A stretch of DNA of 63,258 bases from Candidatus Hermodarchaeota archaeon (GCA_048885925.1 JBHLLG010000014.1:1-63258), one strand, 5' to 3'; positions 28,511-46,557 are shown, counted from the stretch's first letter. Notes: generated by a model not told the origin, from the letters alone. Numbers and translations are program-made.

Positions 28511-28976
28511 TTTTTTCTTATAATGTATAATATTTTTAATTACTTTTTTGTGTGTTATTTATACTATTTTAAAGAAATTAAACACTCAAAAATTATTTAT
28601 TATGTAATTTTTTTAAGAAATTTAAATTTTTGTTAAATTCAGTATAAATTCAAATAACTATATTTATGTGAAAAAAAATGTCGATAATATTTAGCTGAAT
28701 TTACAACATTTTACGAATTTATATAACTGAAAAAAAATTGTGACTTACATTGCTATGAGTTTTTTGGGATTGTGAAACTTTAAATAGGGTTTCTAATATA
28801 AGTTTTTTAGTTCAATATTAATAAAAGTACTAAAAAAACATAACACTTACTAATATTTTACACACAAAAAACAATTGTGTAAAAAAAATTCAATAATAAA
28901 AATTGAGTTAGTAATAAAAAATTATGGTTATGATTCAAGAGAATAGAATCTGCAAAAAAATACGCATGAAGTCAAT

Positions 28977-29789
28977 ATGATAGCTATGAACAACACCCAA
29001 AACATAAATGATAATTCAGAAAAAGTACATATGCTGGGTTACGGTCTATTAGAAAATTCAAATATTATTAATAACGGAATATTTGACATAGTTTTTCAAA
29101 AAGGAATCGGTGTACCACTTATACAAAACATAATTGAACTATATAAAAATGAAATAATAACTAAAAAGCAGGGGAATTCCATTATCCCTTTAGAGGAGTT
29201 TACCATTTATATACAATATTTTAATAATAATGAAAATGAAATTTCTGTCATTATATATATGGAAGAAAAAGACCGAGCAGTAAATTTCTCCAAGTTATAC
29301 TTCTTATCAAGGGATGTAAATAAAAAAATTCTTTCGAAGGCTACTAGTTCAGAAATAATGAATATTTTTGAAACTACTCTAGAAATACCAAAAACTGATG
29401 GTATAATCGCAATTTTTATTATAGGTTCTACTGGTAGTCCATTAATTTCAAAAATTAATAAAAAACGTAGTAATATTGCAGATCATGAAGTCCATATTGG
29501 AGGTTTTATTTCAGCAATATTATCTTTTTCAAATACCATCATTGGACAAGAAACTGGTGCTAAATTAAAAGAAATTAATTTTGGTAACCAACAATTTTAT
29601 GTTATATCAAAAAGTAACGTTATCTTTGCCTTTTTAGTAGAAAATATGAACTCTTTACTTCAAAGGTATATGTACCTCATTGCAGATGAATTTTTATATG
29701 AATATAAAGATTACCTTAAAAATTTTAATGGCGATATCACCCCATTCGCCGATTTTGAAGAAATTATAAACCAATATTTCATAATTTAA
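28977..29789 (+). CDS. Longin-like domain protein (first gene of the che cluster)
   Basis: C-terminal IFIIGSTGSPL..GGFISAILSFS..LKEINFG..IADEFL..Y..FNGDITPFADF, typical of Asgard longin domains. Confidence 0.65.
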   Translation: MIAMNNTQNINDNSEKVHMLGYGLLENSNIINNGIFDIVFQKGIGVPLIQNIIELYKNEIITKKQGNSIIPLEEFTIYIQYFNNNENEISVIIYMEEKDRAVNFSKLYFLSRDVNKKILSKATSSEIMNIFETTLEIPKTDGIIAIFIIGSTGSPLISKINKKRSNIADHEVHIGGFISAILSFSNTIIGQETGAKLKEINFGNQQFYVISKSNVIFAFLVENMNSLLQRYMYLIADEFLYEYKDYLKNFNGDITPFADFEEIINQYFII

Positions 29790-29807
29790 AAAAAAGGTGG
29801 ATAAAAA

Positions 29808-30335
29808 ATGGCTCAAAAGCAATATGAAGGAAAAGATCATGTATCAGTTCTTTCTTTTAAAATAGGTTGGGAAGAGTTCTGCATTGATCTTTATGATGTA
29901 AAAGAAATTATTCAAGCAGGTCAAATTCGAAAATTACCAAAAGGGTTAGATTACATTGATGGCATTTATAATTATAGAGGCGAGATTATTCATGTAATTA
30001 ATCTAAAGAAACGTTTAAATCTAGATGAATATCTTTTGTATTCAAAGCATTCATCTTATGAACAAGATTTAGGTGCTACAAAAAAATACATTATCATTTT
30101 AAAAGTTGAGAACGATCTAATAGGGTTCTATACAGATAGTATTATCAGTATAGACCATATTGATTCAGCTGAGATTGTTGGATTAAGTCCAATTTTTCAG
30201 ACCAGCGTTGCAATCGAATTTATTAAGGGTATAATTAATTTTAAAGAACGACCAAGAGTTATGCTTGATTTAAGTAAAATTTTTAGTGAAGTTGAGAAAT
30301 TCAAAATCCAACAAGATTTGTCATCTTTAACATAA
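29808..30335 (+). CDS. cheW: Chemotaxis coupling protein CheW
   Basis: FKIGWEEFCIDL..VKEII, IDGIYNYRGEIIHVINL, IGFYTDSI. Confidence 0.9.
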   Translation: MAQKQYEGKDHVSVLSFKIGWEEFCIDLYDVKEIIQAGQIRKLPKGLDYIDGIYNYRGEIIHVINLKKRLNLDEYLLYSKHSSYEQDLGATKKYIIILKVENDLIGFYTDSIISIDHIDSAEIVGLSPIFQTSVAIEFIKGIINFKERPRVMLDLSKIFSEVEKFKIQQDLSSLT

Positions 30336-30362
30336 AATCAAATAAAAAAAGGAGTTGATAAA

Positions 30363-30743
30363 ATGACAAAAAACGAGAAGAAAAAGGTCCTAATAGTTGA
30401 TGATGCACAGTTCACTCGAAACATGTTGAAGAATATAATAAATAAAATCGATGACATCGAAGTTATCGGTGAGGCTTCTAATGGTGACGAAGCTATCTCT
30501 TTATACAAGAAACTAAACCCTGATTTAGTTACCATGGATTTAGTGATGCCATCTAAAGGTGGGATTGAGGCAACAGAAGAGATACTGAAAGTAAATCCTA
30601 AAGCATTGATAGTAGTAGTATCCGCTTTAGGTCAAGAAGCTTTGGTTTTAGAAGCAGCAAAAAAAGGAGCAAAGGATTTTATTCAAAAGCCATTCAAAAC
30701 CGAACAAATAGTGGAAGTTATGGACCGAATATTAAAGAAATAA
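30363..30743 (+). CDS. cheY: Response regulator CheY
   Basis: LIVDDAQFTR, PDLVTMDLVMP, VSALGQ, DFIQKPF; directly upstream of cheA. Confidence 0.93.
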   Translation: MTKNEKKKVLIVDDAQFTRNMLKNIINKIDDIEVIGEASNGDEAISLYKKLNPDLVTMDLVMPSKGGIEATEEILKVNPKALIVVVSALGQEALVLEAAKKGAKDFIQKPFKTEQIVEVMDRILKK

Positions 30744-30783
30744 ATACAGTTAGATAAAATAAATATAAATTTAAGGTGATTAT

Positions 30784-32859
30784 ATGTCATCTAAAGAGGA
30801 TATAAAGTTATTCTTAAGTGAAGCTGAGGATCTGATTCAAAAGACTGAGGAACAAATTTTACATTTAGAGGAAAATCCAAAAAATGTAAAACCAATCCAG
30901 GAGTTATTTTTTACCTTCCATGCATTAAAGGGATTAACTGCGATGGCCGGTTTTGAAAATTTATCGAAATTTTGTCATCACTTTGAAAGCTTTTTAGAAA
31001 ATGCAAAAGATAAAAAAATTAGCAGAAATAAACAAAGCAATTTCATTGAAATGTTATTCGAAAGTCTTGATGTGCTAAGAAATGTTTTAAAAAGAGTAAA
31101 GAAAGCAGATTTAAGCGATATTGATGAAAACCTTGTAAAAGATATAAAATCCAGTTTTGAAAATTTTGAGACTGAATATGATATCACCTTTATTAAACCA
31201 TTAAATATAGAAGAAATGACTAAAATTCTTAAACAGGCAGAAAATAAACCTTTCAAAATTTATATCCGGCTTGAGGAAACTTGTGTTTTCAAAAAAGTAA
31301 GATTATTCATCATTTTTAGAGCTTTAAATGAAAATGGTACTATATTCTGGACGAATCCTGCGCCTGAAGAATTAGAAAAAGCTACACTCAAAAACAATTT
31401 TGAAATATTTTATATTACAAAGAAAAATAAAACTGATATCTCTAATATTTTAGATGAAATTCTTGAAATAGAAAATATTGTTATTACTTCATTAAATCCT
31501 GAGGAATTTAAGAAATCTATAATAGATTTAAAAGAGAAATATGAACAGCAGAAGTTATATGCTTCAAGTGAAGAAATAGTTGAACCAAGTTATAGGGAAG
31601 AAGTTGATTTAGAAGAAATAGAGAGAGTCTCTCAAATTGTTGAGGATTATTCAGAAGATAATCTTAAAATAACAAGTGTGAAAGTAAATATCGAGTATCT
31701 TGAGGAATTAATGAACTATTTTGGAGAATTAGTTATTATGAAGAACCATATTAGTCAATTACTAAAAGAAAAACAAGAGAGAATTCTTATAAGGTTAATT
31801 GATAAAATGGATAAACCGTTTTTAGACATTCAAGAAATTCTATTTAAGTTAAAATTAATTAGAGTAGATTCAACATTTAGAAGATATAAAAGGCTGGTTC
31901 GTGATGTGGCAAATGAAACTGGGAAAAAACTAAAACTAATACTTGAAGGCACTAATGTAGAAATTGATAGAAAAATCTTAGAAGAAATTAATACTCCATT
32001 AGTTCAATTAATTAGAAATGCAATTTACCATGGAATTGAGACACCAAAGGAACGTATAAAACATGGAAAAACCGAACTTGGTACACTTAGATTAAAAACC
32101 TTTAGAAAAGCGGGATCAATTTTTATAGAAGTTGAAGATGATGGAGCAGGGATCAATTATGATAAAATAAGAGAAAAAGTTGTGAAGAAAGGATATTGTG
32201 AACCAGATGAAGCTAAAGAATTAACTAATGAAGATTTACATCGCTTTATTTTGATGCCAGGTTTCTCAACATTATCAGATGCAGATATTATATCGGGTAG
32301 AGGTATGGGTCTAGCTATTGTTGCTGAAAAAATAAAAGAATTAGGTGGAGATTTTGCGATCCAATCTAAATTAGGTATAGGTACAAAATTCACAATAATA
32401 GTTCCATTTACTAGAGCAATATTAAGGGCTCAATTAATTCAAATTGCTGATGACTTATTTGCAATTCCAACCGAGAATATTAATCAGATATATTTTTTCA
32501 ATCCTAACCAAGTTGAATACATGGGAGGAGAACAATATTATAAAATAAATTCAAGTTTATTCCCAATTGTTTACCTTGATGAGCATTTGAAAATGAGAGA
32601 TCAATCTAAAACAAACTCTCATAAGAAAATTGTTATTCATTGTCAGCGAGATGAGGATGCATCAGCGGTATTTGTTGCAGATAAACAACTCCAACAACTA
32701 GATGTGGTTGTAAAGCCTTTTAAGTCCAGCTATTCAGATTCTCGTGATATATTAGGTTCTACCATAACAGGAGAAGGTACAATATGTTTAATAATCGATG
32801 TATTAAGTATAATCTCATCAAAATTAAATGAAAATGTAATTACAAATTTAAATATATAA
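30784..32859 (+). CDS. cheA: Chemotaxis histidine kinase CheA
   Basis: HPt FHALKG, P2-like region, RNAIYHGIE, EDDGAGI, PGFST, SGRGMGL, C-terminal CheW-like domain. Confidence 0.95.
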   Translation: MSSKEDIKLFLSEAEDLIQKTEEQILHLEENPKNVKPIQELFFTFHALKGLTAMAGFENLSKFCHHFESFLENAKDKKISRNKQSNFIEMLFESLDVLRNVLKRVKKADLSDIDENLVKDIKSSFENFETEYDITFIKPLNIEEMTKILKQAENKPFKIYIRLEETCVFKKVRLFIIFRALNENGTIFWTNPAPEELEKATLKNNFEIFYITKKNKTDISNILDEILEIENIVITSLNPEEFKKSIIDLKEKYEQQKLYASSEEIVEPSYREEVDLEEIERVSQIVEDYSEDNLKITSVKVNIEYLEELMNYFGELVIMKNHISQLLKEKQERILIRLIDKMDKPFLDIQEILFKLKLIRVDSTFRRYKRLVRDVANETGKKLKLILEGTNVEIDRKILEEINTPLVQLIRNAIYHGIETPKERIKHGKTELGTLRLKTFRKAGSIFIEVEDDGAGINYDKIREKVVKKGYCEPDEAKELTNEDLHRFILMPGFSTLSDADIISGRGMGLAIVAEKIKELGGDFAIQSKLGIGTKFTIIVPFTRAILRAQLIQIADDLFAIPTENINQIYFFNPNQVEYMGGEQYYKINSSLFPIVYLDEHLKMRDQSKTNSHKKIVIHCQRDEDASAVFVADKQLQQLDVVVKPFKSSYSDSRDILGSTITGEGTICLIIDVLSIISSKLNENVITNLNI

Positions 32860-32916
32860 TTTTTTTAAAAAAAAACAAGATTTATCAAATGAAGAAAAAA
32901 ATGGAGGAAAAATAGA

Positions 32917-34923
32917 ATGGGTTTTAAAAAAGTTGACTATGACGAATTAAAAACAAAAATTGGTCCAAATTTTCTTGGTATTCCCATTAGAGAGGGAGGA
33001 AAAGTAGTACAAAAAAGTCATCGAGAAAGTAAAATTCAATCGGGATATACAGGGGTATCTTCTGAAGTACTGATATTAAACGAAGAATTCATGGAATTTC
33101 ATTACCAAAATGATGGAAGAAGAAAAAGCGCAAGTGGTAATGGAAATATAACTATTTTTAATAATTCTATTAAAGATAGAATTTGGGATGCAAATTTACA
33201 ATTTTCAGGGTCTCAATTTGATGATCAAAAGGAAGATAATAATATAAATTTAGGAATATTTGAACCAAGTTCAAATAAAGTATTAAAATATGAAATTGTA
33301 AATTCAGATGAATTATCAGATTTAGTTAAAGTTACAGAAATTATTGAAAATCAGAGTGATGATATTTCATTCACTAATCTTGGTACAGAAATATCTAATA
33401 CTATGGAAAATAATGGCAAACAAAATTATATTCTTTTATTAGGTAAGGAAAATAAGATAAAGTTTTCAATTAATGTTTTTAACATTTCTAATTCTATATT
33501 AGAAAGAATAAAATTTAAAAAAATTTTTCTGGATAACTTTTATGACATAGAATTTAATTGCAATAAAAGTACTGAATTTAAAATAACTAGAAATCTAATA
33601 GAATGTGAGATAAATGATTTAAGTCCAGGGGATCATGCAACAATAATTCTGGTAGCAAAAATTTTCCCTAAAAAGAAAGACAATGTTAAAACAGGTAAAA
33701 TTGAATTAACATTTAATTTATCACATAAAGTTATTTCAGGAGCAAAAATTAACCGATTTTCAGCATATTCGCATGCAATGCATGCTATTAAAAAGAAGGA
33801 GAAAGATCATGCTCCAAATCACTGGCAATGTTCCCTTTTATTTGAAAATCATAGTGATTTTAAAATGAAATTAATCTCTATTCTAATCTATGATGAGTCA
33901 AAATCAAATAAAATTTTAGATTTAGATTTTAATTCTTTAGGAAATCCTATTATAATCCCTCGTGGAAAGTATACTTCACAAGAATTTGATTTTGCCGACG
34001 AAAAAGAGCCTAGATTTTCAAGAAAAGTGGAATATACAGTAGATTCTAAAACAGAAAGCAATTCAATAATTACTTCAAAATATGATGAATCATATTTTAC
34101 TTTAGCTAGTGTTACATTTAAGAAGGAGTTGTCTGACCATGAAATTAAATCATTTAAAGAAGCCGCCTTAGATTCAAAAATTATTATAAACAATATTGGT
34201 ACTGTTCCAGTAAAATCGCTTCAAATCTCAGAGACAATCCCAGAAGATTTCTTACCAAGCAATAATATATCAGACTATACATTTTATAAATTATCAGGTA
34301 AGCTAGATATTCCTGATATTGATTTAAGAGTAAATCCTAATGACGAAGATCCTTCACATAAACACATAATAGAATTGAATATCAACTTAAAGGAAATAAA
34401 TTCCAAATCAGTGATTCTACCCGATGATTTTTTAGAATTAAGATATCAAATTAAAGCAATAAATCCTGATTATAAGAAAACTTACGATTTTCCATTAAAA
34501 GTTAGCTCATTTTATCCAAAATATGAAAATTCAAGAGTTTTTTATGTTATAACCAACGATCTTACTTCATCAGAAAAATCTATGATAAAAGTTTCTCATA
34601 GGAGACGTAAAGTATTAATAGGAAAGGAAATATTTCCGGGAAGAAATAGTAATGAATTCGCGATTTACATAGTTGCCAAAAATGGTTCAAACATTAAGCT
34701 TGATAGTGTAAATGTGAAAGATACTTTTCCAGATTCCTTTGAACTTATATCTTCAAATATAGAGCATAAACTAAGTAAATCTAAGAAAAATGGAGAACAA
34801 ACAATTTCTTTCGTTATTGATACTTTAATGCCGTATCAAGAAAAAGAAATAATGTATTATTTAAAGAATTTAAGCGGAAAAGATGTTAAACAATCTGAAT
34901 TAGAATCATTTTTTGTTGGATAA
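32917..34923 (+). CDS. Uncharacterised beta-rich protein with repeated Ig-like modules, in the che cluster
   Basis: 668 aa, repeated I.N.G/S...I.D/E.IP.DF patterns; GGAGG SD at 32903-32907; no signal peptide seen. Confidence 0.7.
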   Translation: MGFKKVDYDELKTKIGPNFLGIPIREGGKVVQKSHRESKIQSGYTGVSSEVLILNEEFMEFHYQNDGRRKSASGNGNITIFNNSIKDRIWDANLQFSGSQFDDQKEDNNINLGIFEPSSNKVLKYEIVNSDELSDLVKVTEIIENQSDDISFTNLGTEISNTMENNGKQNYILLLGKENKIKFSINVFNISNSILERIKFKKIFLDNFYDIEFNCNKSTEFKITRNLIECEINDLSPGDHATIILVAKIFPKKKDNVKTGKIELTFNLSHKVISGAKINRFSAYSHAMHAIKKKEKDHAPNHWQCSLLFENHSDFKMKLISILIYDESKSNKILDLDFNSLGNPIIIPRGKYTSQEFDFADEKEPRFSRKVEYTVDSKTESNSIITSKYDESYFTLASVTFKKELSDHEIKSFKEAALDSKIIINNIGTVPVKSLQISETIPEDFLPSNNISDYTFYKLSGKLDIPDIDLRVNPNDEDPSHKHIIELNINLKEINSKSVILPDDFLELRYQIKAINPDYKKTYDFPLKVSSFYPKYENSRVFYVITNDLTSSEKSMIKVSHRRRKVLIGKEIFPGRNSNEFAIYIVAKNGSNIKLDSVNVKDTFPDSFELISSNIEHKLSKSKKNGEQTISFVIDTLMPYQEKEIMYYLKNLSGKDVKQSELESFFVG

Positions 34924-34967
34924 AAATTAAAATGAAATAAAAAGTCAAGAAAAAAAGGAGGAAAATT

Positions 34968-35807
34968 ATGAAACTACAATTTTATGAAACAATGTATGAT
35001 AAATCAAAAGAATATCTTTCATATCTTTGTGAACAAATTTTACCCCAATTCACGGATAGCGAATTAAAGTTTTTTTTAGAAGATATTATAGAAACAAAGA
35101 GTACTGGGAAAAAAAAGGCAAAGTCAGAAGGTTTTGATAAGATTGGGGACGATACTGGGAAACTCGCAGATCTCTCGAAATTAAAGCCAGAAGAATTTAA
35201 ACCTTTATTTCAGGTTTTTATAAGCAGAGAAATAAATGATAGGAATTCTGTAAAATGGCGCTTTTATCAATATCTTAAATACATTTCGGATTTAAAAATA
35301 AAATCAGTAAAGATCAATCGAGATCAAAATCTAGATCGATTAATTGATTTTATTATCGAAACAGAAGAGAAACAAATTCTTTTTGTCTTATGTTATGATA
35401 TGATAGAATTAAATGATTATGACAAAGCATTAAAGGAAATGAACGAATTTTCGAAAAACCAAAACCTTCTTCCTGATAGAATTGTTTTTGCAACAAACAA
35501 GTCATTTCGAAACATACCAATAGATATTTCTATTAAGGTAGGTAATACAGAAGTAATACCAGAGTTATGGGTTGAATGGATTGAAGAAAGTTGTCCTTTT
35601 AATAGAGAAGACTTATTAATCGTTAATAACTCCGATCTCAAACTTGCTGGGTTCAATTTCACGAGTACAGATGATTTATTGAAGTATGTTTTTAAATATT
35701 CAAAAGGTGGACAAGTTTCAATTTATAGACAAGTAGATTTTTTTACTGAAGTTTCTGATGAACAACCTGAAGTGGAATTAATTTGGAAAGGTATAATGTT
35801 AAAATGA
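34968..35807 (+). CDS. Uncharacterised protein in the che cluster (possible degenerate PD-(D/E)XK-like fold)
   Basis: 279 aa; GGAGG SD at 34957-34961; LIDFIIET..ILFVLC..PDRIVFAT pattern. Confidence 0.65.
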   Translation: MKLQFYETMYDKSKEYLSYLCEQILPQFTDSELKFFLEDIIETKSTGKKKAKSEGFDKIGDDTGKLADLSKLKPEEFKPLFQVFISREINDRNSVKWRFYQYLKYISDLKIKSVKINRDQNLDRLIDFIIETEEKQILFVLCYDMIELNDYDKALKEMNEFSKNQNLLPDRIVFATNKSFRNIPIDISIKVGNTEVIPELWVEWIEESCPFNREDLLIVNNSDLKLAGFNFTSTDDLLKYVFKYSKGGQVSIYRQVDFFTEVSDEQPEVELIWKGIMLK

Positions 35808-35850
35808 AAATTAATCTAAAAAATTAGCAGATAAGGATGAGGTAAAAAAT

Positions 35851-37824
35851 ATGTTAAAAAGCCAATCAGAAAAAATAGAATTTGGAGACAGTGTTAATGT
35901 TGTGATACTTCAAATATTTGATGAGAAATATCTTCTTGAAGTAGAAAATGTAAAAGAAATTTATGTGCCGGGAGAAAATATTATCCCCGTTCCATTAGCA
36001 GATAAATCAATTGTAGGAATTATTAATATAAGAGGAGATATTTACTCCGTTATATCGTTACGACATAATATATATGATAATAGTATTGATTATGGATTAA
36101 GTAACCGATCAAGAATTCTATTATTAGAATATCGCAATTTAAAAATTGCATTACTCGTGGATGCAATTATTGGTGTTAAAGATATACCAATTTCTGTTTT
36201 TAAAAAGCAAGGTACAATTGTGAAAACAAATATTGATTTTAAATTTATAAAATTAACTGGTATATTTCAGGATGAGTCACTAATACTATTAGATTTAAAC
36301 GCTCTTATTCAACCATATCTTAAATCTTTAGGAAAAGCAATAGATACAAAAGTAAAATTAAAACCAAAAATTCTAGAGAAACCTAAAGTGCAACCAAAAC
36401 AAGCACCAAAATCTACAATAGATTCTACTGTGGTTATCCCTCAAGAAATACAAATTCATGGAAAATTATCTTCAATTCCAAAAGCAGCAGATATTAAAGA
36501 AATTTCTTTGTCAGAAGAACAACAAGATATGCTTAAAGAAATTGGGAATATTGGTACAGGAAATGCTGTCACAGCGTTATCTCGATTGGTAAAAAAGAAA
36601 ATTGATGTAACTTTAACAGATGTAGGAATTATTCCATTAGAGGAATTACCTAAACAGTTCGGTGGATCTAAAGAGAAAGTATGTGGAATATTTTGTCATA
36701 TAGATAAACCTACTCAAGCAACAATTTTAAATATTTTTGAAATGACTCCTCTAATGAAAATGATTGCGGATTTAACGGGTAAAAAGTCAAAGATAGATCC
36801 TGATAAAGTTAAAACTAAAAAAGATCTTGATGATTTTGCAATTTCTACAATTGTAGAAATGGGAAATATTATGGCAGGTCATTATGCTTCAGCTTTAGCA
36901 GATTTATTAGGCACAAAATTGATGATTGATATACCTGAATTTGCAATGAGTGATGCTGGTGAGATTGGAGAATTTCTATCAAAAGAACTAAAATCTATTG
37001 CAGAATTCTTTATAATAATTAAAACTTCAATACAAGTTGCGGATTTAAAACTAAAAGGTATGTTTTTCTTTATCCCTGATCTTGAGACATTGAAAATATT
37101 TTTTGATAAATTAGGAATCGAACATAGTATATCTGATAAACACCTAAAAACTACAAAGTTGTCTAAAGCTGTGGATGTGGATAAAATAAAACTTACAGAA
37201 CTTCAAAGAGATGCCCTACAAGAAGTTGGAAATATAGGCGCTGGAAATGCTGCGAATGCTTTAGCTCAGATGATTAATAAGCGAGTTGATATAAATGTTC
37301 CAACAGTAGAAATGGTCGAATTAGACGAATATGCTAAAAAAATAAGTAAAAAGAATGAAAAACTCCTAGTTGCGTGGAGTAATGTTGTTGGAAAGACAAG
37401 GGCTACGGTTCTAACATTATTTAATCTTAAAGATGCAATAGATATCACATCAATAATTGTAGATGATCCTGATAAAAAACAAATTGACTTAAGACGAAAA
37501 ATAGACACTGCATCTGATTTTCCAGAGCTGTATCATAGTGCAATTTCTGAACTAGGACACATTCTCGGAAGTCATTATGTAAGTGCTATTGGTGACTTAT
37601 TAAGTTTGCGTTTAATGACAGAGCCTCCTGATATGTCAGTTGATACAGGAGAACTCTTATTTAAGATTTTACAAGAAGAAATTGGTCTACTTAGGAAATT
37701 GTCATTGGTAATTACTACAAGTGTTCTTATAACCGATATTAAAGTCACAGGCACATTTTTATTTATTCCGAGTTTAGAAACATTACACGAATTATTAGAT
37801 GCGTTGTTAAAGTTTTATTCATAG
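35851..37824 (+). CDS. CheW-CheC-CheC fusion protein
   Basis: N-terminal CheW (IVGIINIRGDIYSVISL, IALLVDAI), Pro/Lys linker, then two CheC domains (LKEIGNIG..EMGN; LQEVGNIG..ELGH). Confidence 0.88.
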   Translation: MLKSQSEKIEFGDSVNVVILQIFDEKYLLEVENVKEIYVPGENIIPVPLADKSIVGIINIRGDIYSVISLRHNIYDNSIDYGLSNRSRILLLEYRNLKIALLVDAIIGVKDIPISVFKKQGTIVKTNIDFKFIKLTGIFQDESLILLDLNALIQPYLKSLGKAIDTKVKLKPKILEKPKVQPKQAPKSTIDSTVVIPQEIQIHGKLSSIPKAADIKEISLSEEQQDMLKEIGNIGTGNAVTALSRLVKKKIDVTLTDVGIIPLEELPKQFGGSKEKVCGIFCHIDKPTQATILNIFEMTPLMKMIADLTGKKSKIDPDKVKTKKDLDDFAISTIVEMGNIMAGHYASALADLLGTKLMIDIPEFAMSDAGEIGEFLSKELKSIAEFFIIIKTSIQVADLKLKGMFFFIPDLETLKIFFDKLGIEHSISDKHLKTTKLSKAVDVDKIKLTELQRDALQEVGNIGAGNAANALAQMINKRVDINVPTVEMVELDEYAKKISKKNEKLLVAWSNVVGKTRATVLTLFNLKDAIDITSIIVDDPDKKQIDLRRKIDTASDFPELYHSAISELGHILGSHYVSAIGDLLSLRLMTEPPDMSVDTGELLFKILQEEIGLLRKLSLVITTSVLITDIKVTGTFLFIPSLETLHELLDALLKFYS

Positions 37825-37943
37825 GAGTTAAATTTAATTTAATCCATATTTATTTTTTTTTAAAATTTTCATGAATCAAAATAGAATATCCAAATTAGAT
37901 AAAAACATCTATGTAAAATATCAAAAAAAGCCTTTGAATCAAT

Positions 37944-38468
37944 ATGTTGAAAACCAGCTATTATGATTACATTTATAAAGTAGATGGTGAAACTGTTAAG
38001 CTTAGACCCGAAAAAATCTTTGTTCCTGATGATGTTTATTTAATTATAGATAAAGAATTAAAAATAATTTGGATATGGGCGGGTAGTCATTCACGTTTAT
38101 TCCATCGTTATATGGCTGCAAATTGGGCAGGAAAACTCAAAACTAAGAAGAAATTTTTTAATTTTAAATATGAAGTGATTAAACAAGGCATAGAACCCTC
38201 TGAATTTCACATTATTTTTAAAGAAATTAAGGAAAATCGTGCTGATTTAAATTATCCCGGACAATCACGAAATGTTTTCATTAAAAATGAATCATCAGGA
38301 ACTATTGATTTATCAGAAAAGCCCGGGGGTTTGGATTTATCAAAATCAGTAAAATCACATATAATGAAGATTTTATCTGAAATTAAAGAAATGCAATTAC
38401 ATATAAAATATTCTCTTGATCATATCCAACAGCGTTATGAAGAAATTGAAAAATTATTGGAAAGATAA
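37944..38468 (+). CDS. Single gelsolin-like domain protein with C-terminal coiled coil
   Basis: DDVYLIID..IWIWAGSHS..A..A..IKQGIEPSEF matches the gelsolin repeat consensus D.FILD...IF.W.G..S...QG.E...F. Confidence 0.75.
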   Translation: MLKTSYYDYIYKVDGETVKLRPEKIFVPDDVYLIIDKELKIIWIWAGSHSRLFHRYMAANWAGKLKTKKKFFNFKYEVIKQGIEPSEFHIIFKEIKENRADLNYPGQSRNVFIKNESSGTIDLSEKPGGLDLSKSVKSHIMKILSEIKEMQLHIKYSLDHIQQRYEEIEKLLER

Positions 38469-38480
38469 AAGTGTTTAGAA

Positions 38481-39491
38481 GTGATAAGAATTGATGATAT
38501 CAAATTCAATGAAAATTACTATAATCTACTAGTTGATTATTTAATCAACGCTACTGGATTAAACCTAAATTATTATCGAAAAAACCACATTGAGAAAAGA
38601 ATAAAATCCAGGATGATTCGAGTTAATTGTAATACATTCGAGTCGTACTATAATTATTTATTAGAAAAACCATCAGAAACTAAAAATTTTTTAGATTGTT
38701 TCAATATTAATTATTCTGTTTTTTTTAGAAACTGGGAAGTCTTTAAACAATTTGAAAAAATATTTTTATATTCATTATATCTAAAAAAAGACGATATCAT
38801 AAGTGATCTTGAGCCGAATCCAGAGAGGCAATATCAAAGAATACAGAGAAATTTATCTTCTCACTCAAAAAAACCAAAAAAAGTATCTCTTAATCGAATT
38901 ATATCACAAACTTCGTTATACCGTAAAATATGGAATGGTTTAGATTCCGAAGGTACTATTAATATTTGGTCATGTCCTTGTGCTAATGGAGAGGAACCAT
39001 ATTCAATTGCTATGATTTTAGATAATCTCAAAAAGCAAACTCCTGGATTTTCAAAATATAGAATTATTGCCTCTGATATTGATGGAGATGCCATTAAAAG
39101 AGCAAAAATAGGAGTTTATAAAGAGGATTCCACAAAAGATGTATCAAAATATTATGATGATAACTATTTTGTTAAAAAGAAGGAAAATTGTGGATTTATT
39201 TATTCAATAAATAAAAAAATTCAAGATAGTATAGAATTTATAGAAGAGGATGTAACCAAAGGCCATCAAACATCATTGAAATATGATATTATCTTTTGTC
39301 GTTATCTCCTAATATATATTAGTAGAAAAATACGAAAAGTATTTTTAAACATAATTGAAAGCCGATTAAATCCTGGTGGTTTATTAATTTTAGGTAAAAC
39401 CGAATCACTTCTTAACTCTCAATGTGATTTGAAATTAATAGACACTTCAAATTGTATTTACATAAAAAGAGGTGGCTTAAATCTCAATTAA
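38481..39491 (+). CDS. cheR: Chemotaxis methyltransferase CheR
   Basis: NINYSVFFRN, IWSCPCANGEEPYSIAM, ASDID, YDIIFCRYLLIY, LNPGGLLILGKTE. Confidence 0.93.
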   Translation: MIRIDDIKFNENYYNLLVDYLINATGLNLNYYRKNHIEKRIKSRMIRVNCNTFESYYNYLLEKPSETKNFLDCFNINYSVFFRNWEVFKQFEKIFLYSLYLKKDDIISDLEPNPERQYQRIQRNLSSHSKKPKKVSLNRIISQTSLYRKIWNGLDSEGTINIWSCPCANGEEPYSIAMILDNLKKQTPGFSKYRIIASDIDGDAIKRAKIGVYKEDSTKDVSKYYDDNYFVKKKENCGFIYSINKKIQDSIEFIEEDVTKGHQTSLKYDIIFCRYLLIYISRKIRKVFLNIIESRLNPGGLLILGKTESLLNSQCDLKLIDTSNCIYIKRGGLNLN

Positions 39492-40608
39492 AGTTCTTGT
39501 AGCAGAAGATTCAAGCTTTCAACGAAAACTTATCTCTGATATGTTATTATCAAACGATGAGATTACAAACGTGGAACTTGCAAGAAATGGAAGAGAAGCA
39601 ATAGAAAAAATTGAGAAAATTAATCCCGATGTTTTAATTTTAGACTTAATGATGCCTGAAGTTGATGGTATAACCGTATTTAAATTCTTATCAGAACACT
39701 ATCCTATACCAACAATTATATTTTCAGCTAAAAACCCAGAAACACTGGATGCATCTATTCAAGCTTTACTTTTAGGCGCTTTTGACTTCATTTTGAAGCC
39801 AAAAGGTCTCTGGGAAGAAGAATTCCCAAAGTTTAAAGAAAAACTTCTTTCCAGTACTTTATATGCAGGAAAAATCAAAAAAACTTATGAAAAGCGTAAT
39901 TTATTAATTAAAACTTCTCTTGATAAACCAATCTATTTAGATGAATCTTCTATAGATTATCAAATAGCGAAAAAACCAAAAGAAAAAACAATTGACACTC
40001 CAAAAACAAAAAAAACACCAAAAACTATACTACTATCTAAAATAGTAACTATTGGTACTAGTACAGGAGGACCTAAAACTTTAAAATCAATATTAAAAAA
40101 CATTCCCAAGGATTTTTCTTTTCCAATATTGATTGTACAACATTTAGATGCTTTCTTTATGCAAGAACTTTCAAAATCACTAAATCATATATGCGCGATT
40201 GAAGTTAAAATCCCTGAGAATGGAGAAAAAATTCTACCAGGTGTTGCTTATCTTAGCCCTGGAGGAAAACACATGAAAGTTATCTTAAAAAATAATATTC
40301 CTTGCCTTGAAACTTTTAAAGGAGCACCTGTAAATTTTTGTGTTCCATCTGTTGATGTTCTCTTTTTTTCTGTAGCAGAGATTTATAAGAATCAAAGTCT
40401 AGGAATCTTATTGACAGGTTTAGGAGAAGATGGAGCTGCTGGATTAGAAGCAATTAAGAATGAAGGTGGAATGACAATTGCCGAGTCAGAAGAAACATGT
40501 GTTGTATATGGTATGCCGAAAGCAGCTATACAACGAGGAGCTGCAAAATTAGTGATCCCTAATTATAGAATTGAAGAAAAGATAATTGAATTTGGAAATA
40601 AAATATAA
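39481..40608 (+). CDS. cheB: Chemotaxis methylesterase CheB (REC plus esterase), copy 1
   Basis: The receiver N-terminus ISIKVLVAEDS lies upstream of the ORF-track ATG 39541. Other motifs: LDLMMP, GTSTGGP, VQH, PSVD, LTGLGEDG, YGMP. Start codon uncertain (see findings). Confidence 0.9.
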   Translation: MSIKVLVAEDSSFQRKLISDMLLSNDEITNVELARNGREAIEKIEKINPDVLILDLMMPEVDGITVFKFLSEHYPIPTIIFSAKNPETLDASIQALLLGAFDFILKPKGLWEEEFPKFKEKLLSSTLYAGKIKKTYEKRNLLIKTSLDKPIYLDESSIDYQIAKKPKEKTIDTPKTKKTPKTILLSKIVTIGTSTGGPKTLKSILKNIPKDFSFPILIVQHLDAFFMQELSKSLNHICAIEVKIPENGEKILPGVAYLSPGGKHMKVILKNNIPCLETFKGAPVNFCVPSVDVLFFSVAEIYKNQSLGILLTGLGEDGAAGLEAIKNEGGMTIAESEETCVVYGMPKAAIQRGAAKLVIPNYRIEEKIIEFGNKI

Positions 40609-40632
40609 TTAATCAAACAAAAGTTAAATTTT

Positions 40633-41178
40633 ATGGTGAATAAGATAAAATCCTATGGAAAAATTGATGAAATCGATCGAAATGGTGAGATTTTCTTACC
40701 TATAGGGCATTATACCTTAATAAATTGTAAAAATAAACCTAACAATACTAATCCAAAAATATCAATTTATGGATTGGGCTCTTGTATTGCACTTATTCTT
40801 TTTGATTGTAAAAATAAAGTTAGTGGAATGTCTCATATTTTACTACCTAAAGCTCAAAAAAATAAAAAAATTGAATATCCTCATAAATATGCAGATTTAT
40901 CTGTAAAATTGCTCGTGCACGAATTAGTGAAACACGGTGCTATGAAAGAAAACATTAAGGGAATTATAATTGGAGGTTCAAAAATTTTTGATTTAGATGA
41001 AAATTTTATGGGCATTGATAATATCCAAGCGATTAAATTAGAATTAGCAAAATTAAATATAAATATTTTAAAAGAACACGTAGGAGGAAAAGAAGGAAGA
41101 GCAGTTATTTTTGATACAAAAAATTTTACTGTTCTTGTTAAATTAACTTCAGAAACGAGTTTTACGAGACTTCAATGA
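40633..41178 (+). CDS. cheD: Chemoreceptor glutamine deamidase CheD
   Basis: GLGSCIA, GMSHILLP, KYAD, GGSKIF, HVGGKEGR. Confidence 0.92.
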   Translation: MVNKIKSYGKIDEIDRNGEIFLPIGHYTLINCKNKPNNTNPKISIYGLGSCIALILFDCKNKVSGMSHILLPKAQKNKKIEYPHKYADLSVKLLVHELVKHGAMKENIKGIIIGGSKIFDLDENFMGIDNIQAIKLELAKLNINILKEHVGGKEGRAVIFDTKNFTVLVKLTSETSFTRLQ

Positions 41179-41210
41179 TCTTTAAATTATTTATTATGTA
41201 AATATTCGAG

Positions 41211-41885
41211 ATGAAATTAAAAATGGTTAAAAATAAACAAATAAAAGATTTAAAATTAACTCCAGAGCAAATTGATGTATTAAAGGAGTTTGGTAATATT
41301 GGGTCAGGGAATGCAATTACAGCTCTTTCAGATTTATTAAATGATACTGTTAATGTCTCTTTAACAGCATTAAATTTATGTGCTTTTTGGAAAATTCCTG
41401 ACTTATTTGAAGATCCTAATATTGAAGTATTTGGAATATACACTGAAATTTTAGACAATCCTGATCTATCGATAATTCAGTTTTTTACCAAGGAATCTAT
41501 TATAAATTTAATTAATATTTTGAATGAATTTAATAATAGTAATTCGTCTGAAATTAAAAATATTAGAGATCTAAATGAGTTCTCTTATAGTATAATTTCA
41601 GAAATTGGGAATTTATTGGCGGGACATTATGCCAGTGCATTGGCTGACTTATTATCAATTAAATTAGTTCCAAGTGTACCAAAAGTAGCACTAGATAATT
41701 TAACTGCTATGTTAAATGGTGTAATCGCTAAATACTCTCAATTTGCAGATTACTCAATAATCATCGACACAAAATTACAGGGAAAGGCTATCAATTTGAA
41801 TGGAATTATATGTCTTTTACCGAGTATAAACATTTTAAACAAATTATTTAAGATTGTGAATTTGAAGTTTAATTTAAATTTATGA
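41211..41885 (+). CDS. cheC: CheY-P phosphatase CheC
   Basis: DVLKEFGNIGSGNAITALS and SEIGNLLAG (two E-x-x-N motifs). Confidence 0.9.
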   Translation: MKLKMVKNKQIKDLKLTPEQIDVLKEFGNIGSGNAITALSDLLNDTVNVSLTALNLCAFWKIPDLFEDPNIEVFGIYTEILDNPDLSIIQFFTKESIINLINILNEFNNSNSSEIKNIRDLNEFSYSIISEIGNLLAGHYASALADLLSIKLVPSVPKVALDNLTAMLNGVIAKYSQFADYSIIIDTKLQGKAINLNGIICLLPSINILNKLFKIVNLKFNLNL

Positions 41886-41926
41886 ATTAAATAATACCGA
41901 ATGAAAAGAATTAAAAAACCAAAATA

Positions 41927-42868
41927 ATGTCAAAAGTAGCACTATTAGAGGATTTACTCAGTAACTTCCTAAATGAAGTTCAAGTCCTTTCTGCAGCTCT
42001 AGTTGTAGACTTGCAAGGTTTCATTATTGCTAAAAAGTCAATAAGGGGGTTTGATGACGAATTAATTGGTGCTATTATGACAATCATAGAACAAACTTTA
42101 AATAAAATTAAAAGATATACAGAAACTTCATTTGGAAGTGGTACCTTTGATACAAATGAATTTCAACTATTTTATGTTGAATTAAAAAGAGTAGTCCCGG
42201 CAATTTTTGTTTTAGTTGCAGATCCCTATTCTTCAATGAATCTTTTCATTCCTTATGCCTATATAGTGGCAGAAAAAATATCTTTAATTTTAAATAATAA
42301 AAACCCATGTATTAATTTACCTAGATTAAGCTCTAATGGAGAATTAATATTCGGATCCAAAAATAATCATATAAATGAGATTGTAATAGTAGGTCCTGAA
42401 GCAGTAGGTAAAAGTACATTAGTTGAAATGTATTGTAGTGGACATTTTGAGGAAAACCACAAACCAACAATAGGAATTTCAATCATTAAGAAAGAACTTC
42501 AAATCTCAAAAGATATTACTTTAACTTTTAATCTCCTTGATTTGGGAGGGATAAAAAGTTTTGCCAAAATAAGAAAATTCTACTATAAATATTCAAAGGT
42601 GGTTTTGATAATTTTTGATTATTCTAGGATAGAAAGTTTCAACGAAATTTCTGATTGGATTGAAGAATCAAGAAATTTCATTAAAAATGAATCAATCCCT
42701 ACTATTATAATTGGAAATAAAATAGATTTATTAGACAATCGTAATGAAATCAGATCTAAAGCTCAAAGTCTAGCCCACCAATATAATTTTTCTTTTTTTG
42801 AAACATCTGCTTTAACTGGAGAAGGGATTGATGAATTATTTACTCATCTGATTTCAATTCTATTTTAG
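41927..42868 (+). CDS. Roadblock/LC7 domain fused to a Rab/Ras-like small GTPase
   Basis: N-terminal SAALVVDLQGFIIA roadblock; G1 GPEAVGKST, G2 PTIG, G3 DLGG, G4 GNKID, G5 ETSA. Confidence 0.9.
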   Translation: MSKVALLEDLLSNFLNEVQVLSAALVVDLQGFIIAKKSIRGFDDELIGAIMTIIEQTLNKIKRYTETSFGSGTFDTNEFQLFYVELKRVVPAIFVLVADPYSSMNLFIPYAYIVAEKISLILNNKNPCINLPRLSSNGELIFGSKNNHINEIVIVGPEAVGKSTLVEMYCSGHFEENHKPTIGISIIKKELQISKDITLTFNLLDLGGIKSFAKIRKFYYKYSKVVLIIFDYSRIESFNEISDWIEESRNFIKNESIPTIIIGNKIDLLDNRNEIRSKAQSLAHQYNFSFFETSALTGEGIDELFTHLISILF

Positions 42869-42942
42869 CTTTAAGAAAGATATAAATTATATAACACTAC
42901 TAATTATTAGAAACATTTTACAAATTAAAAAGAGAGATTTTA

Positions 42943-44316
42943 TTGACTATTGATGTTATTGTAGCAGACGATAGTGCTTATTTAAGAAAAAGTATTGCTA
43001 ACATTCTCAATGAACATGATTCAATAAATATTGTCGACTTTGCAAAGGATGGAAAACAAGCAGTTGAATATGTTAAAAGATATACCCCTGATGTTTTAGT
43101 TTTAGATCTCTTAATGCCTAAAATGAACGGGTTAGATGCTTTTAAACTAATTATGGAAGAACATCCAACTCCTACAGTAATTCTATCAGCCATTAGCCCC
43201 AAAAATTTAGACTCATCTATACAAGCTTTATTAATGGGAGCTTTTGATTATATAATAAAGCCTGGTGGTATTGGTGCTAAAGATTTACCTAGGTTTAGTG
43301 AAGAATTACTCGCTAAAGTGTTATTAGCTTCACAATCTCAGATTAAAAGAATTTTCAAGAAAGAAGAAACATTATTAAGTAAACGTAAATCTCTTCGACA
43401 AGAAATGGTTGATCGAATTTTTGATTTTGGACAATACATCAATCAATTAAAGCCTATTGATGAACTTGAAGAAGAACCGAAGATTGATACCTTTGAAATA
43501 ATGAAAGTAAAAGCAATTCTTACAGATAAAATAAAGCCAACTGATACAGATGAATCATCTATTAAGTTAGAGAATCAATTAATTGAGCCCAAAGTTGAAA
43601 ATAATTTAGAAAGACCCATAAAATCAATTGATCCATCAAATATACTAAAAACTAAGAAGCAAAAAATACCCACCATAATACCCTATGAAAAGAAAGAAAT
43701 TGAACCTCTTCCCGATCTTTCTCCCATTATGGGAATTGAATTAACCTCTAAAGTTGTTGTTATAGGGGCTAGTGTAGGAGGACCTAGAACGATTACTACG
43801 ATTTTAAAAGAAATTCCGAGAGATTTCAGTGCCCCCATATTAATCGTTCAGCACTTATCATCTCATTTTACAGAAGCTTTTGTAGACAATTTAAATTTAG
43901 AATGCAACTTAAAGATAAGAATAGCTAAAGATGGAGAGTACCTTCAAAATGGTGTTGTGTATATAGCCCCTGGAGATATGCATATGGAAATTTCTATAGA
44001 AAATAAAAAACCATCAATCAAAATATATAAAGGAACACCAGTCAATTTTTGTATGCCTTCTATAGATTTATTATTTTTTTCAGCAGCAAAAGTCTTTAGA
44101 AACCGCACAATGGGAATTTTATTAACTGGTATGGGTTCTGATGGTGTTCAAGGTTTGGGAGCAGTTCAGAAGGTTGGCGGTAAAACTATTGCTGAGGCAG
44201 AAAGTACTTGTATCCTCTATGCGATGCCAAAATTTGCAGCAGAAAAAGGATTTGCAAACTATATCTTAGAAAATTATAAAATTTCTGAACTTATCACTAG
44301 TTTTATTAATAAATAA
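42943..44316 (+). CDS. cheB: Chemotaxis methylesterase CheB, copy 2, with long interdomain linker
   Basis: VADDS, LDLLMP, ~130-aa linker, GASVGGP, VQH, PSID, LTGMGSDG, YAMP. Confidence 0.9.
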   Translation: MTIDVIVADDSAYLRKSIANILNEHDSINIVDFAKDGKQAVEYVKRYTPDVLVLDLLMPKMNGLDAFKLIMEEHPTPTVILSAISPKNLDSSIQALLMGAFDYIIKPGGIGAKDLPRFSEELLAKVLLASQSQIKRIFKKEETLLSKRKSLRQEMVDRIFDFGQYINQLKPIDELEEEPKIDTFEIMKVKAILTDKIKPTDTDESSIKLENQLIEPKVENNLERPIKSIDPSNILKTKKQKIPTIIPYEKKEIEPLPDLSPIMGIELTSKVVVIGASVGGPRTITTILKEIPRDFSAPILIVQHLSSHFTEAFVDNLNLECNLKIRIAKDGEYLQNGVVYIAPGDMHMEISIENKKPSIKIYKGTPVNFCMPSIDLLFFSAAKVFRNRTMGILLTGMGSDGVQGLGAVQKVGGKTIAEAESTCILYAMPKFAAEKGFANYILENYKISELITSFINK

Positions 44317-44364: not shown

Positions 44365-46557
44365 TTACCACGAGATTCCTTTAGCAAAACGTAATTTTTC
44401 AATTAATTGCTTTGCTTCATGTGAAGGCACTTCCATAAAAGCGAAGAATTCATTCTGCCAAAATGCTTTTCCAGAAGTTGCAGATCTAATATCTTCAGCA
44501 AAAAGTACGGAATTCCTAACAGGTAATAATAATTCTATGATGGCTTGATATTCTTTTTCTTGATCTATGCTTTTGATTTTAGCAGAGTATTTTGAAGGTA
44601 AGCTAGTTGCTACTTTAATAAACTCTGGTGGAAGTTGGATTATGGTATGATAGATAGGTTGCATTAAAATTAATTCTGCATCGTTTAACCCTTTTTTAAT
44701 CGCATCATAAAACATAGCTGATAATTCTGAAAAGGCATTTTCTTCATTAATATTCTCAATTTTCAACTCTGAAATGACAATTTTAATCTCTGTTAATTTT
44801 TCTCCGCACAAAGGACCACTTAAATGAATTTTTTCAATGATCTCTAATATAAGATTCTTGTAAAACTCATTAAGTTTTAATTCCCCTTGATAGATAAGGA
44901 TATTTTGATCTTCATCACAAATCCAAAAATTTTCAATTTCATTATCAGCCAACTTGGTTTTATCTTTTAGAACTTCTTTTAATTTGGTAAAAGGCTTTAT
45001 TGTTGTATAATCGATATTTTGAAAAAATCTAACGGTTTCATCATCCAATCTTTCTAATTTTAACTTTAAGAAACACTGATTATTAGGTGATATGGCAGAA
45101 ATAACAGAAGAATTATATTTACAGGATTCTTTAAAAACTGCTCGTGGTTCTGATATGGAAACTACTACTCCTCTTTTCTTTATTTCATTAGCTGATACCT
45201 CTAGGTGAAGAAATCCAGTACCACTCAATAAAAATTCACCATTTTCTTCGTTAATTTCAAATTTTAAATTTGGATCTTCAATTAACAAATTCTCAATTAG
45301 TAATTTCATCTTATCTAAATCTCTTAGATATTCTGGCTCAATGGATACAGTTATCACAGGAGTAGTAACATATTTTGCACTTTCGAATGGTACCATACCG
45401 TTAATATTATTGCTGTCAATTATAGTTTCACCGCTTTTTATCTTCTTAATCCCTTCAATCGCTACAATATTACCGACAGGTACTCTTTCAACTTGCTCTC
45501 TTCGTTGTCCCATAAAAATGGCAATTCTTTGAATTTTCTCATAAGAATTTTCATTTAGGAGAAAAATTTCCTTTTTATTTGTACAATTGCCCGAAAATAT
45601 CCTCCCTGTTGAGATTAAACCATGCTTTTCTACTTGTACTTTACTTAAACATACTATTAAAGGACCATTAGGATCGCAATTAACCATAGCTTTTCCCAGT
45701 TCAGTATTGATGTCTCCATCCCATATTTTTTCAATTCGATATTTTTGTGCGTCTATTGGATTTGGTAAATGATCAACAACCATTTCTAATATAGCTTTAT
45801 GAATTGGAAAATGAATAGCTAAATCAGAATAAGTTTTTTTCGTATACGTGTCTTTATTATATCTTTCTTTAATATCTTTGAACTTTATTTCACTTTTCTC
45901 TAAAATCTTTAAAGTAAAACCCCACTTATGAAGCGCTGAACCAAACGCCACATTTCCTGCTAATGGTGATACTTTCCATCTTTTATTGAATGGATGTTCT
46001 GCATATCTTTCTATTAGAGTGTTGAAGGACTTAATTATTCGTACGTATTTTTTTCTAATCTCCTCATCAGAAAGCTTTAATTCTCTAATCAATCGATCTA
46101 CCTTATTAATAAATAATACTGGTCTAACTCCTTCCTGCAAAGCCTGTTTTATTACTGTCTCAGATTGAGTGATTACTTCTTCAACTGCATCTACTACCAC
46201 AACAACGCCATCAACTAATCTCAATGCTCGAGTAACTTTTCCACTAAAATCTAAATGGCCAGGCGTATCAACTAAATTAATAAGAAAGGGTTCATAACCT
46301 TCAAGAGATTTCTCATAATATAAAGATATATTTGCTGATTTCATCGTAATGCCTCGTCTTTGCTCTTCTTCAAGAAAATCTAAAGCACGTGCTTCACCAG
46401 CTAAATCAGGTGATAAAAATCCTGCTTCGCTTAGTAGAGAATCTGAAAGTGTTGTTTTTCCATGATCGATGTGTCCTACTAAAGCTGCGCACCTAATTCT
46501 AGCAGTGTTTTCCATTAATTTTAGTATTTCTGAGATCTCTTTTCTTCTTGGGGGCAT
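44365..46557 (-). CDS. Archaeal elongation factor 2 paralog lacking the diphthamide motif
   Basis: GHIDHGKTT, RGITM, DTPGH, NKVD and EF-2 domains II-V. The domain IV loop reads ELKIENINEENAFSE instead of H-E-D-x-x-H-R-G. Confidence 0.88.
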   Translation of the reverse strand: MPPRRKEISEILKLMENTARIRCAALVGHIDHGKTTLSDSLLSEAGFLSPDLAGEARALDFLEEEQRRGITMKSANISLYYEKSLEGYEPFLINLVDTPGHLDFSGKVTRALRLVDGVVVVVDAVEEVITQSETVIKQALQEGVRPVLFINKVDRLIRELKLSDEEIRKKYVRIIKSFNTLIERYAEHPFNKRWKVSPLAGNVAFGSALHKWGFTLKILEKSEIKFKDIKERYNKDTYTKKTYSDLAIHFPIHKAILEMVVDHLPNPIDAQKYRIEKIWDGDINTELGKAMVNCDPNGPLIVCLSKVQVEKHGLISTGRIFSGNCTNKKEIFLLNENSYEKIQRIAIFMGQRREQVERVPVGNIVAIEGIKKIKSGETIIDSNNINGMVPFESAKYVTTPVITVSIEPEYLRDLDKMKLLIENLLIEDPNLKFEINEENGEFLLSGTGFLHLEVSANEIKKRGVVVSISEPRAVFKESCKYNSSVISAISPNNQCFLKLKLERLDDETVRFFQNIDYTTIKPFTKLKEVLKDKTKLADNEIENFWICDEDQNILIYQGELKLNEFYKNLILEIIEKIHLSGPLCGEKLTEIKIVISELKIENINEENAFSELSAMFYDAIKKGLNDAELILMQPIYHTIIQLPPEFIKVATSLPSKYSAKIKSIDQEKEYQAIIELLLPVRNSVLFAEDIRSATSGKAFWQNEFFAFMEVPSHEAKQLIEKLRFAKGISW

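Follow-up and report, generated by a model that had tools for sequence, protein, structure and literature searches.

A conserved chemosensory gene cluster with gelsolin, longin-like and roadblock-GTPase genes in Asgard archaea suggests a link between chemical sensing and the cytoskeleton

This work concerns a cluster of 14 genes at positions 28977-44316 of a 63,258-nucleotide stretch of DNA from Candidatus Hermodarchaeota archaeon (GCA_048885925.1 JBHLLG010000014.1:1-63258), which is referred to here as the window and from whose first letter its coordinates are counted. The cluster joins a chemosensory (Che) core to a gelsolin gene, a longin-like gene, a roadblock-GTPase fusion and two further genes, and it suggests that chemical sensing is wired to the cytoskeleton in a motor-less Asgard archaeon. 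Asgard archaea possess actin, gelsolins and dozens of small GTPases, and to our knowledge almost nothing is known about the signals that control them. The listing of open reading frames (ORFs) for this region contains exactly 14, all on the plus strand and separated by intergenic gaps of 12-119 bases, which agrees with the original prediction of 14 co-oriented genes with short gaps. Nine of them were assigned by Pfam as CheW, CheY, CheA, a CheW-CheC-CheC fusion, CheR, CheB, CheD, CheC and a second CheB, and the near-complete Che core described in that prediction is thereby confirmed. The other five are g01 (longin-like), g05 (DUF11 repeat), g06 (orphan), g08 (gelsolin) and g13 (roadblock-Ras GTPase). 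No gene for a methyl-accepting chemotaxis protein (MCP), CheF or archaellin was found in the window, as had also been stated. Due to the conserved gene order and the co-inheritance described below, the Che core is very likely linked in function to the gelsolin, longin-like, GTPase and two unknown genes, as originally proposed. Very probably, the five embedded genes work as components of a chemosensory system that is independent of an archaellum.

Gene order around cheA was compared at 35 distinct loci in 34 other genomes, which were gathered from homologues of the CheW-CheC-CheC fusion and of g06. Every ORF of these loci was typed with hidden Markov models (HMMs) of the 14 genes. The genomes are metagenome-assembled genomes (MAGs) with an estimated contamination of 2-12 %, and a cluster is counted as covered for a gene only where its contig extends far enough to show that gene. 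The order g01-CheW-CheY-CheA-g05-g06-CheWCC-gelsolin-(CheR)-(CheB-CheD-CheC)-(GTPase)-(CheB), where CheWCC denotes the CheW-CheC-CheC fusion, is kept in the 35 loci. Since the embedded genes are syntenic in 34 other genomes, as the original prediction required, the arrangement is far beyond chance. Its first eight genes, from g01 to the gelsolin, hold their order in a genome of another family, at 32-45 % identity of the non-Che genes, and in the most distant cluster the conservation of these genes is roughly on a par with that of CheW, CheA and CheR. In 27 of 28 covered clusters, the gelsolin gene comes after the CheW-CheC-CheC gene, with L086 as the exception; g01 was identified in 21 of 24 covered clusters, and g05 always lies between CheA and g06 in the typed clusters. 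The most divergent clusters carry the GTPase gene directly after the gelsolin or CheR gene.

A separate observation concerns the closed genome G006, in which the cluster is split into the loci L071 (~0.36 Mb) and L039 (~1.44 Mb). The split separates CheY-CheA-g05-g06 from CheWCC-gelsolin-CheR-CheB-CheD-CheC-GTPase-CheB, and g01 was not found beside the CheY-CheA-g05-g06 part.

The co-inheritance of the genes was followed in 300 genomes sampled evenly from the phylum, 67 of which belong to family f1; related genomes in this sample are not independent observations. A CheA of the cluster type occurs in 13 of the 67 family f1 genomes, and g06 was found in exactly the same 13. An orthologue of g08 is present in 12 of these 13 genomes and in none of the other 54, and the CheA-carrying genome without it is an 84 %-complete assembly of 520 contigs. 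Likewise, 12 of the 13 carry a g01 orthologue, while the thirteenth cluster is cut by a contig end. The cluster is patchy even inside one genus (8 of 20 genomes), which points to repeated gain or loss as a unit. In one genome of the same genus without CheA (G277; locus L133, C52 7712-10774), the g01 orthologue adjoins the EF-2 paralogue that otherwise borders the far end of the cluster, and the genes from CheW through the second CheB appear to have been deleted. Receptors follow the same pattern, as no MCP over the cut-off was found in any of five near-complete Che-less genomes of this genus, and 4-16 were found in each of five Che-positive genomes. The system is lineage-specific and occurs in one Asgard order, in family f1 with a relative in f4; the same order includes a closed Che-less genome of 4.4 Mb.

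The Che clusters of other Asgard families were found to be without g05, g06, g08 and g13 and without CheF. For families f26 and f29 and for genome G183, there are weak hints of roadblock-like or g01-like neighbours, together with one sub-threshold Pfam longin match; the f26 cluster has an unnamed neighbour of 250 amino acids (AA) with a weak roadblock-like match. At four loci of other families (L115, L116, L121 and L122), proteins of 960-1150 AA with three or four CheW-like domains adjoin CheY and CheA.

The original prediction had made its reading dependent on the absence of a swimming motor elsewhere in the genome. The whole-genome search, in an assembly that is 95 % complete and 4.4 % contaminated, returned neither archaellin nor CheF, and seven MCPsignal matches over the cut-off were found, all on other contigs. 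Control genomes gave the expected positives in the CheF and archaellin searches. CheF (PF04283) was found in none of the 300 genomes of the phylum sample and in one of 40 relatives, and this sole positive carries a different Che cluster. Archaellin (PF01917) was absent from the 40 relatives and over the cut-off in two of the 300 sampled genomes. With CheA present in 45 of the 300, Che systems without CheF and archaellum are general among the sampled Asgard genomes. The premise that archaeal Che systems normally act through CheF therefore applies to the Halobacterium, Haloferax and Methanococcus type but mostly not to Asgard archaea, where CheA in 45 of 300 genomes stands against CheF in none. 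The genome of the window encodes four actin-family genes and around 65 small GTPases.

Among the embedded genes, g08 (37944..38468, 174 AA) comprises a single gelsolin domain and a conserved C-terminal helix. This gelsolin-domain protein, whose identity stands as originally described, is a putative actin binder. A profile of nine g08 orthologues matches villin, Thor ProGel and 2DGel3, and Heimdall and Loki 2DGel in the PDB with E-values of 1.5e-5 to 8e-3. Pfam Gelsolin gives weak matches in eight of the nine orthologues with a best E-value of 8e-4, and the g08 of the window itself reaches 13 bits at a cut-off of 21. The helix-like tail at residues 135-174 is very conserved. The g08 HMM also retrieves the three other Pfam-Gelsolin proteins of the same genome. 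These proteins of 294-360 AA are encoded on contigs C20, C67 and C6 (loci L110, L111 and L112), and two of the three carry C-terminal motifs of the HeH/SAP/Rho_N type. Compared to the known Asgard gelsolins ProGel, 1DGelX and 2DGel (PMC7444086, PMC9433394), g08 shows a 1DGelX-like plan of one domain with a predicted helical tail, as far as these proteins are described in the available text, and its profile finds the solved chains of ProGel and 2DGel. It differs from these proteins in its length of only 174 AA and in forming a separate orthologue group tied to a Che cluster.

The roadblock-small GTPase fusion named in the original prediction is likewise supported. In g13 (41927..42868), residues 150-310 form a Ras-family GTPase (Pfam Ras 3e-37). 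The N-terminal half has no direct Pfam match, and residues 1-145 align with 21 Robl_LC7 segments of the same genome in hhalign with a probability of 97.1 and an E-value of 8e-11. The motifs G1, switch I T, DxxG, NKxD and SA are retained across 15 sequences. In all 15, the residue following DxxG is L or I and never Q; the glutamine at this position is, as we take it, the catalytic residue of Ras-superfamily GTPases.

The embedded longin-like protein could be upheld in part. The product of g01 (28977..29789, 270 AA) combines an N-terminal domain of unknown type with a C-terminal half that is longin-like at profile level only. No direct Pfam or PDB match was found for g01 itself, including by a PDB sequence profile. 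The HMM of its family finds three small proteins of the same genome that match Pfam Fuz_longin_1, one of them above the family cut-off, and the C-terminal half of g01 aligns with these proteins in hhalign with a probability of 96.4 and an E-value of 1e-9. In hhalign, the N-terminal half matched neither roadblock nor longin profiles, nor the N-terminal half of g13 or the C-terminal half of g01 itself, and the longin assignment does not extend to it. Weak PilZ-like (4 of 38 family members) and YNR034W-A-like (7 of 38) matches are not relied on. Longer proteins that contain g01 as a fused part were searched for and not found, although this counts as weak evidence only.

The neighbourhoods of g01 paralogues in the same genome are informative about its possible partners. 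On contig C59 (10891-14224, minus strand), a short MCP of 253 AA, a HisKA-REC protein of 295 AA, a g01 paralogue of 308 AA and a weak roadblock protein of 120 AA occur together. An MCP is also close to this paralogue, judged by coordinates, in two other Che-positive genomes. In all four other genomes inspected, which are Che-less, a roadblock gene comes next after the g01 paralogue and no MCP is present there. Furthermore, a g01-like protein is encoded upstream of a CheR-CheD fusion on contig C10, a CheR paralogue adjoins a Ras GTPase on contig C82, and a Ras GTPase elsewhere in the genome precedes a large protein with a g01-like domain. Because of these neighbourhoods, the g01 family may work together with roadblock and GTPase proteins, and they point to its recurrent recruitment to chemosensory parts.

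Of the two embedded proteins left unnamed by the original prediction, one could be placed and the other is a true orphan. The product of g05 (32917..34923, 668 AA) is a cytoplasmic member of the archaeal DUF11 family of immunoglobulin-like (Ig-like) repeat proteins without a hydrophobic segment (Pfam DUF11 1.8e-5; atlas feature score 0.97 and template modelling score, TM, of 0.63 to archaeal DUF11 clusters). For g06 (34968..35807, 279 AA), 203 close homologues were found, all from Asgard archaea and all annotated as 'hypothetical', and a search of 1.84 billion proteins yielded only 61 representatives. It had no Pfam match and no meaningful PDB match by sequence profile, and Pfam scans of each member of the family and its remote relatives gave scattered matches at chance level only. 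The gene is present in single copy and nowhere else in the genome.

The genes of the Che core were all assigned by Pfam. The core starts with CheW (29808..30335; Pfam CheW 1.5e-24), followed by CheY (30363..30743; Pfam Response_reg 6.5e-27), which consists of a single receiver domain, and by CheA (30784..32859; Pfam Hpt, P2, H-kinase_dim, HATPase_c and CheW), of which the genome yielded no second copy. Across 18 CheY orthologues, the positions that we take to be the acidic pocket DD, the phospho-accepting D and the S87-type and K109-type residues are invariant or nearly so. The same holds for the stretch SALGQEALVLEAAKKGAKDFIQKPF, which presumably lies on the alpha4-beta5-alpha5 face. Its invariance suggests a conserved partner surface for CheY, while the identity of the partner is not given by it. 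Downstream of g06 lies the CheW-CheC-CheC fusion (35851..37824, 657 AA; Pfam CheW 8e-20 and CheC 1.2e-39 in three stretches). After g08 follow CheR (38481..39491; Pfam CheR 2.4e-40 and CheR_N), the first CheB (39481..40608; Pfam CheB_methylest 7e-59 and Response_reg), CheD (40633..41178; Pfam CheD 5.9e-22) and CheC (41211..41885; Pfam CheC 1.9e-21). A second CheB with a long linker (42943..44316; Pfam CheB_methylest 3e-57 and Response_reg 2.4e-21) closes the cluster after g13. The genome contains two further CheR homologues, one on contig C82 and one in the CheR-CheD fusion on contig C10.

The listed ATG of the first CheB is at 39541, although the frame is open from 39481 and the translation of 39481-39660 reads KVLVAEDSS ahead of this ATG. 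The first strand and the acidic pocket of its receiver are thus encoded upstream of the listed start. Since the receiver coding begins there, the true start is probably a codon other than ATG, GTG or TTG that overlaps the CheR stop at 39491. None of the 14 cluster proteins has a hydrophobic segment typical of a membrane helix. The window has a G+C content of about 28 %, and the AT-rich intergenic region at 28511..28976 on the plus strand is the presumed promoter region, with genes further upstream on the opposite strand. At the other end, an EF-2-like GTPase paralogue of 730 AA is encoded on the minus strand (44365-46557) and is a conserved neighbour of the cluster on this side in most congeneric genomes.

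Based on these genes, a mechanism can be proposed in which a classical core, consisting of MCPs encoded elsewhere and CheW, CheA, CheY, CheR, two copies of CheB, CheC, CheD and the CheW-CheC-CheC fusion, would have gained five dedicated cytoplasmic partners. These partners would replace the CheF-archaellum output, with g13 taking part in most members only. CheA activity would be set by receptor arrays, and phosphorylated CheY (CheY-P) would bind one dedicated partner, for which g01 or g06 are the best guesses. The longin-like domain of g01 and the roadblock domain of g13 might then pair to form a longin/roadblock platform that sets the state of the GTPase. Local severing or capping of Asgard actin filaments by the gelsolin would follow, and the growth or retraction of protrusions or the polarity of the cell could thereby be biased along chemical gradients. 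Both the physical interactions and a signal running from CheY to actin and GTPase are what we infer. An output of this kind, from CheY-P through a longin/roadblock-GTPase switch and through a dedicated gelsolin that acts on actin, holds the largest share of probability, which we put at roughly 0.45. The full form of this proposal, in which a chemoreceptor array and a CheA-CheY phosphorelay directly steer a eukaryote-type actin cytoskeleton through the dedicated gelsolin and the longin/roadblock-GTPase switch and so produce chemotropic growth and retraction of protrusions, is rather doubtful.

Several observations weigh against this actin/GTPase output. The g13 GTPase is dispensable, as it is present in only 18 of 25 covered clusters, absent from five, reduced to a remnant in one and replaced by a nearby unfused GTPase in one. 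Parts of the cluster decay, since several genomes of the same genus (L038, L041, L073 and others) have an in-cluster CheR of only ~50-68 residues or none at all. Because the Che clusters of other Asgard families lack both these genes and CheF, such genes are not a requirement of an archaellum-free Che system as such. The longin assignment of g01 consists of transitive profile links, Fuz_longin_1 is matched by only two of 38 family members, and a roadblock identity of the C-terminal half of g01 was rejected with an hhalign probability of 11 against roadblock proteins. Neither g05 nor g06 gives a clue to a cytoskeletal role. Finally, a locus with a T2SSE-type ATPase on contig C9, described below, could be another output of the Che system.

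The strongest rival explanation reverses the coupling. The gelsolin, the DUF11 protein, the orphan and the longin-like protein would anchor or place the receptor array on the actin network, setting its cytoplasmic face on the actin of a wall-less, irregularly shaped cell, while the output of CheY-P would lie elsewhere. The co-inheritance data are equally consistent with such a structural role, a long Ig-like repeat protein without membrane segments such as g05 suits a scaffold, and the CheW-CheC-CheC gene lies directly between the g06 and gelsolin genes. However, the gelsolin family is known for severing, capping and sequestering rather than for anchoring. According to the accessible part of PMC7444086, single-domain Asgard gelsolins severed or bundled actin in vitro. 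In addition, a GTPase switch that carries a roadblock domain of its own fits signalling better than a scaffold, and the Che clusters of other Asgard families do without these genes. The reversed coupling is considered unlikely.

Another explanation is that the Che system acts through g01 and g13, or through other small GTPases, to set polarity or a surface machine, with the gelsolin as a minor accessory. A precedent is the Frz system of Myxococcus xanthus, which signals to MglA and the roadblock protein MglB, where MglA controls type IV pili (PMC4316618, as far as its accessible text describes this). The roadblock-GTPase fusion in 18 of 25 covered clusters and the pairing of a g01 paralogue with a roadblock gene are in line with this idea. 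A candidate target is the locus on contig C9 (12149-16307, minus strand), in which a divergent T2SSE-type ATPase of 726 AA adjoins a 508-AA protein and a small protein of 140 AA with a hydrophobic N-terminus, and which may be a pilus-like assembly locus. Nevertheless, 30 of 40 relatives have a T2SSE-like ATPase irrespective of the Che cluster, and none was found in the Che-positive genomes G006 and G007. Because this distribution does not follow the Che cluster, the locus is unlikely to be a dedicated Che output. Conservation among the five embedded genes is also lowest for the GTPase and nearly complete for the gelsolin, and g13 is of the Ras type by Pfam and has no glutamine after DxxG. A polarity switch of this kind is regarded as slightly less likely than the reversed coupling.

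That the embedded genes are conserved neighbours without a role in chemosensing, with the Che system serving another output such as gene regulation, is highly implausible: inertia can preserve gene order among close relatives, the GTPase and CheR were lost from some clusters and the cluster of G006 is split into two distant loci, but the order persists at identities as low as ~40 % and in a second family, g06 and g08 follow CheA almost perfectly in their distribution inside a genus with a patchy cluster, the single-copy g06 occurs nowhere else in the genome, and the non-Che genes match CheW, CheA and CheR in conservation in the most distant cluster.

Compared to the archaeal Che-CheF-archaellum systems of the Halobacterium, Haloferax and Methanococcus type, the core of CheA with P2, CheW, CheY, CheR, CheB, CheC, CheD and MCPs is shared. 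In contrast, CheF and archaellin are missing here from the genome and from nearly all relatives, five dedicated genes are added, and CheW is fused to two CheC modules. Within the Asgard archaea, Che genes were reported in 'Ca. Lokiarchaeum ossiferum' and in 27 of 97 Asgard MAGs, with many MCPs, and chemoreceptor arrays were seen by cryo-tomography (PMC9834061). The Che set of 'Ca. Lokiarchaeum ossiferum' likewise combines a Che core with many MCPs, but the available text of that paper lists gene presence only. It describes neither gene order nor a gelsolin, longin, GTPase, DUF11 or orphan gene inside the cluster and does not mention the archaellum; the comparison covers this text.

The Frz-MglA/MglB system resembles the cluster in joining a Che-type pathway to a Ras-superfamily GTPase and a roadblock regulator. 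In the portion of PMC4316618 available, the mglA and mglB genes of Myxococcus are not clustered with frz, whereas all parts form one cluster here. MglB is a separate protein in Myxococcus, and roadblock domain and GTPase are one chain in g13. Gelsolin and actin would be involved only in the system described here. A RomR-type partner was not identified in our analysis, which included no search aimed at RomR.

The roadblock-GTPase architecture of g13 was already described for Asgard archaea in PMC10933270, along with longin-GTPase fusions. According to the accessible text of that study, Asgard small GTPase genes generally lie outside operons with roadblock or longin genes, and the GTPases cannot be paired with regulators from genome layout. 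In the cluster described here, by contrast, a roadblock-GTPase and a longin-like gene share a conserved arrangement with a defined upstream sensory system. The available text on Asgard gelsolins contains no mention of chemotaxis or of an operon (PMC7444086). Asgard Che genes, MCPs and arrays, Asgard gelsolins, roadblock-GTPase fusions and the bacterial Frz-MglA/MglB link have thus each been published separately. A full-text literature search found no prior description of a conserved cluster that joins these parts, although supplementary tables, e.g. of the chemotaxis genes in PMC9834061, might list some of them. The cluster is not described in the accessible text of PMC9680633, PMC9834061, 10.1101/2025.07.22.663070, PMC13053709, PMC5847659, PMC7935092, PMC13408092, PMC10933270, PMC7444086 or PMC4316618.

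The cluster provides a defined and conserved putative operon in which a well-understood sensory input is combined with one gelsolin, one longin-like protein, one roadblock-GTPase and two unknown proteins. It bears on the puzzle of what role the Che system plays in Asgard lineages with receptor arrays and without an archaellum. Since the components are few, soluble and small, the question can be tested by direct binding and actin assays. If CheY-P does act through a longin/roadblock-GTPase switch and a dedicated gelsolin, this would be a categorically new coupling. Should the array and phosphorelay directly steer the actin cytoskeleton, the system would represent a pre-eukaryotic form of gradient-guided, actin-based cell behaviour.

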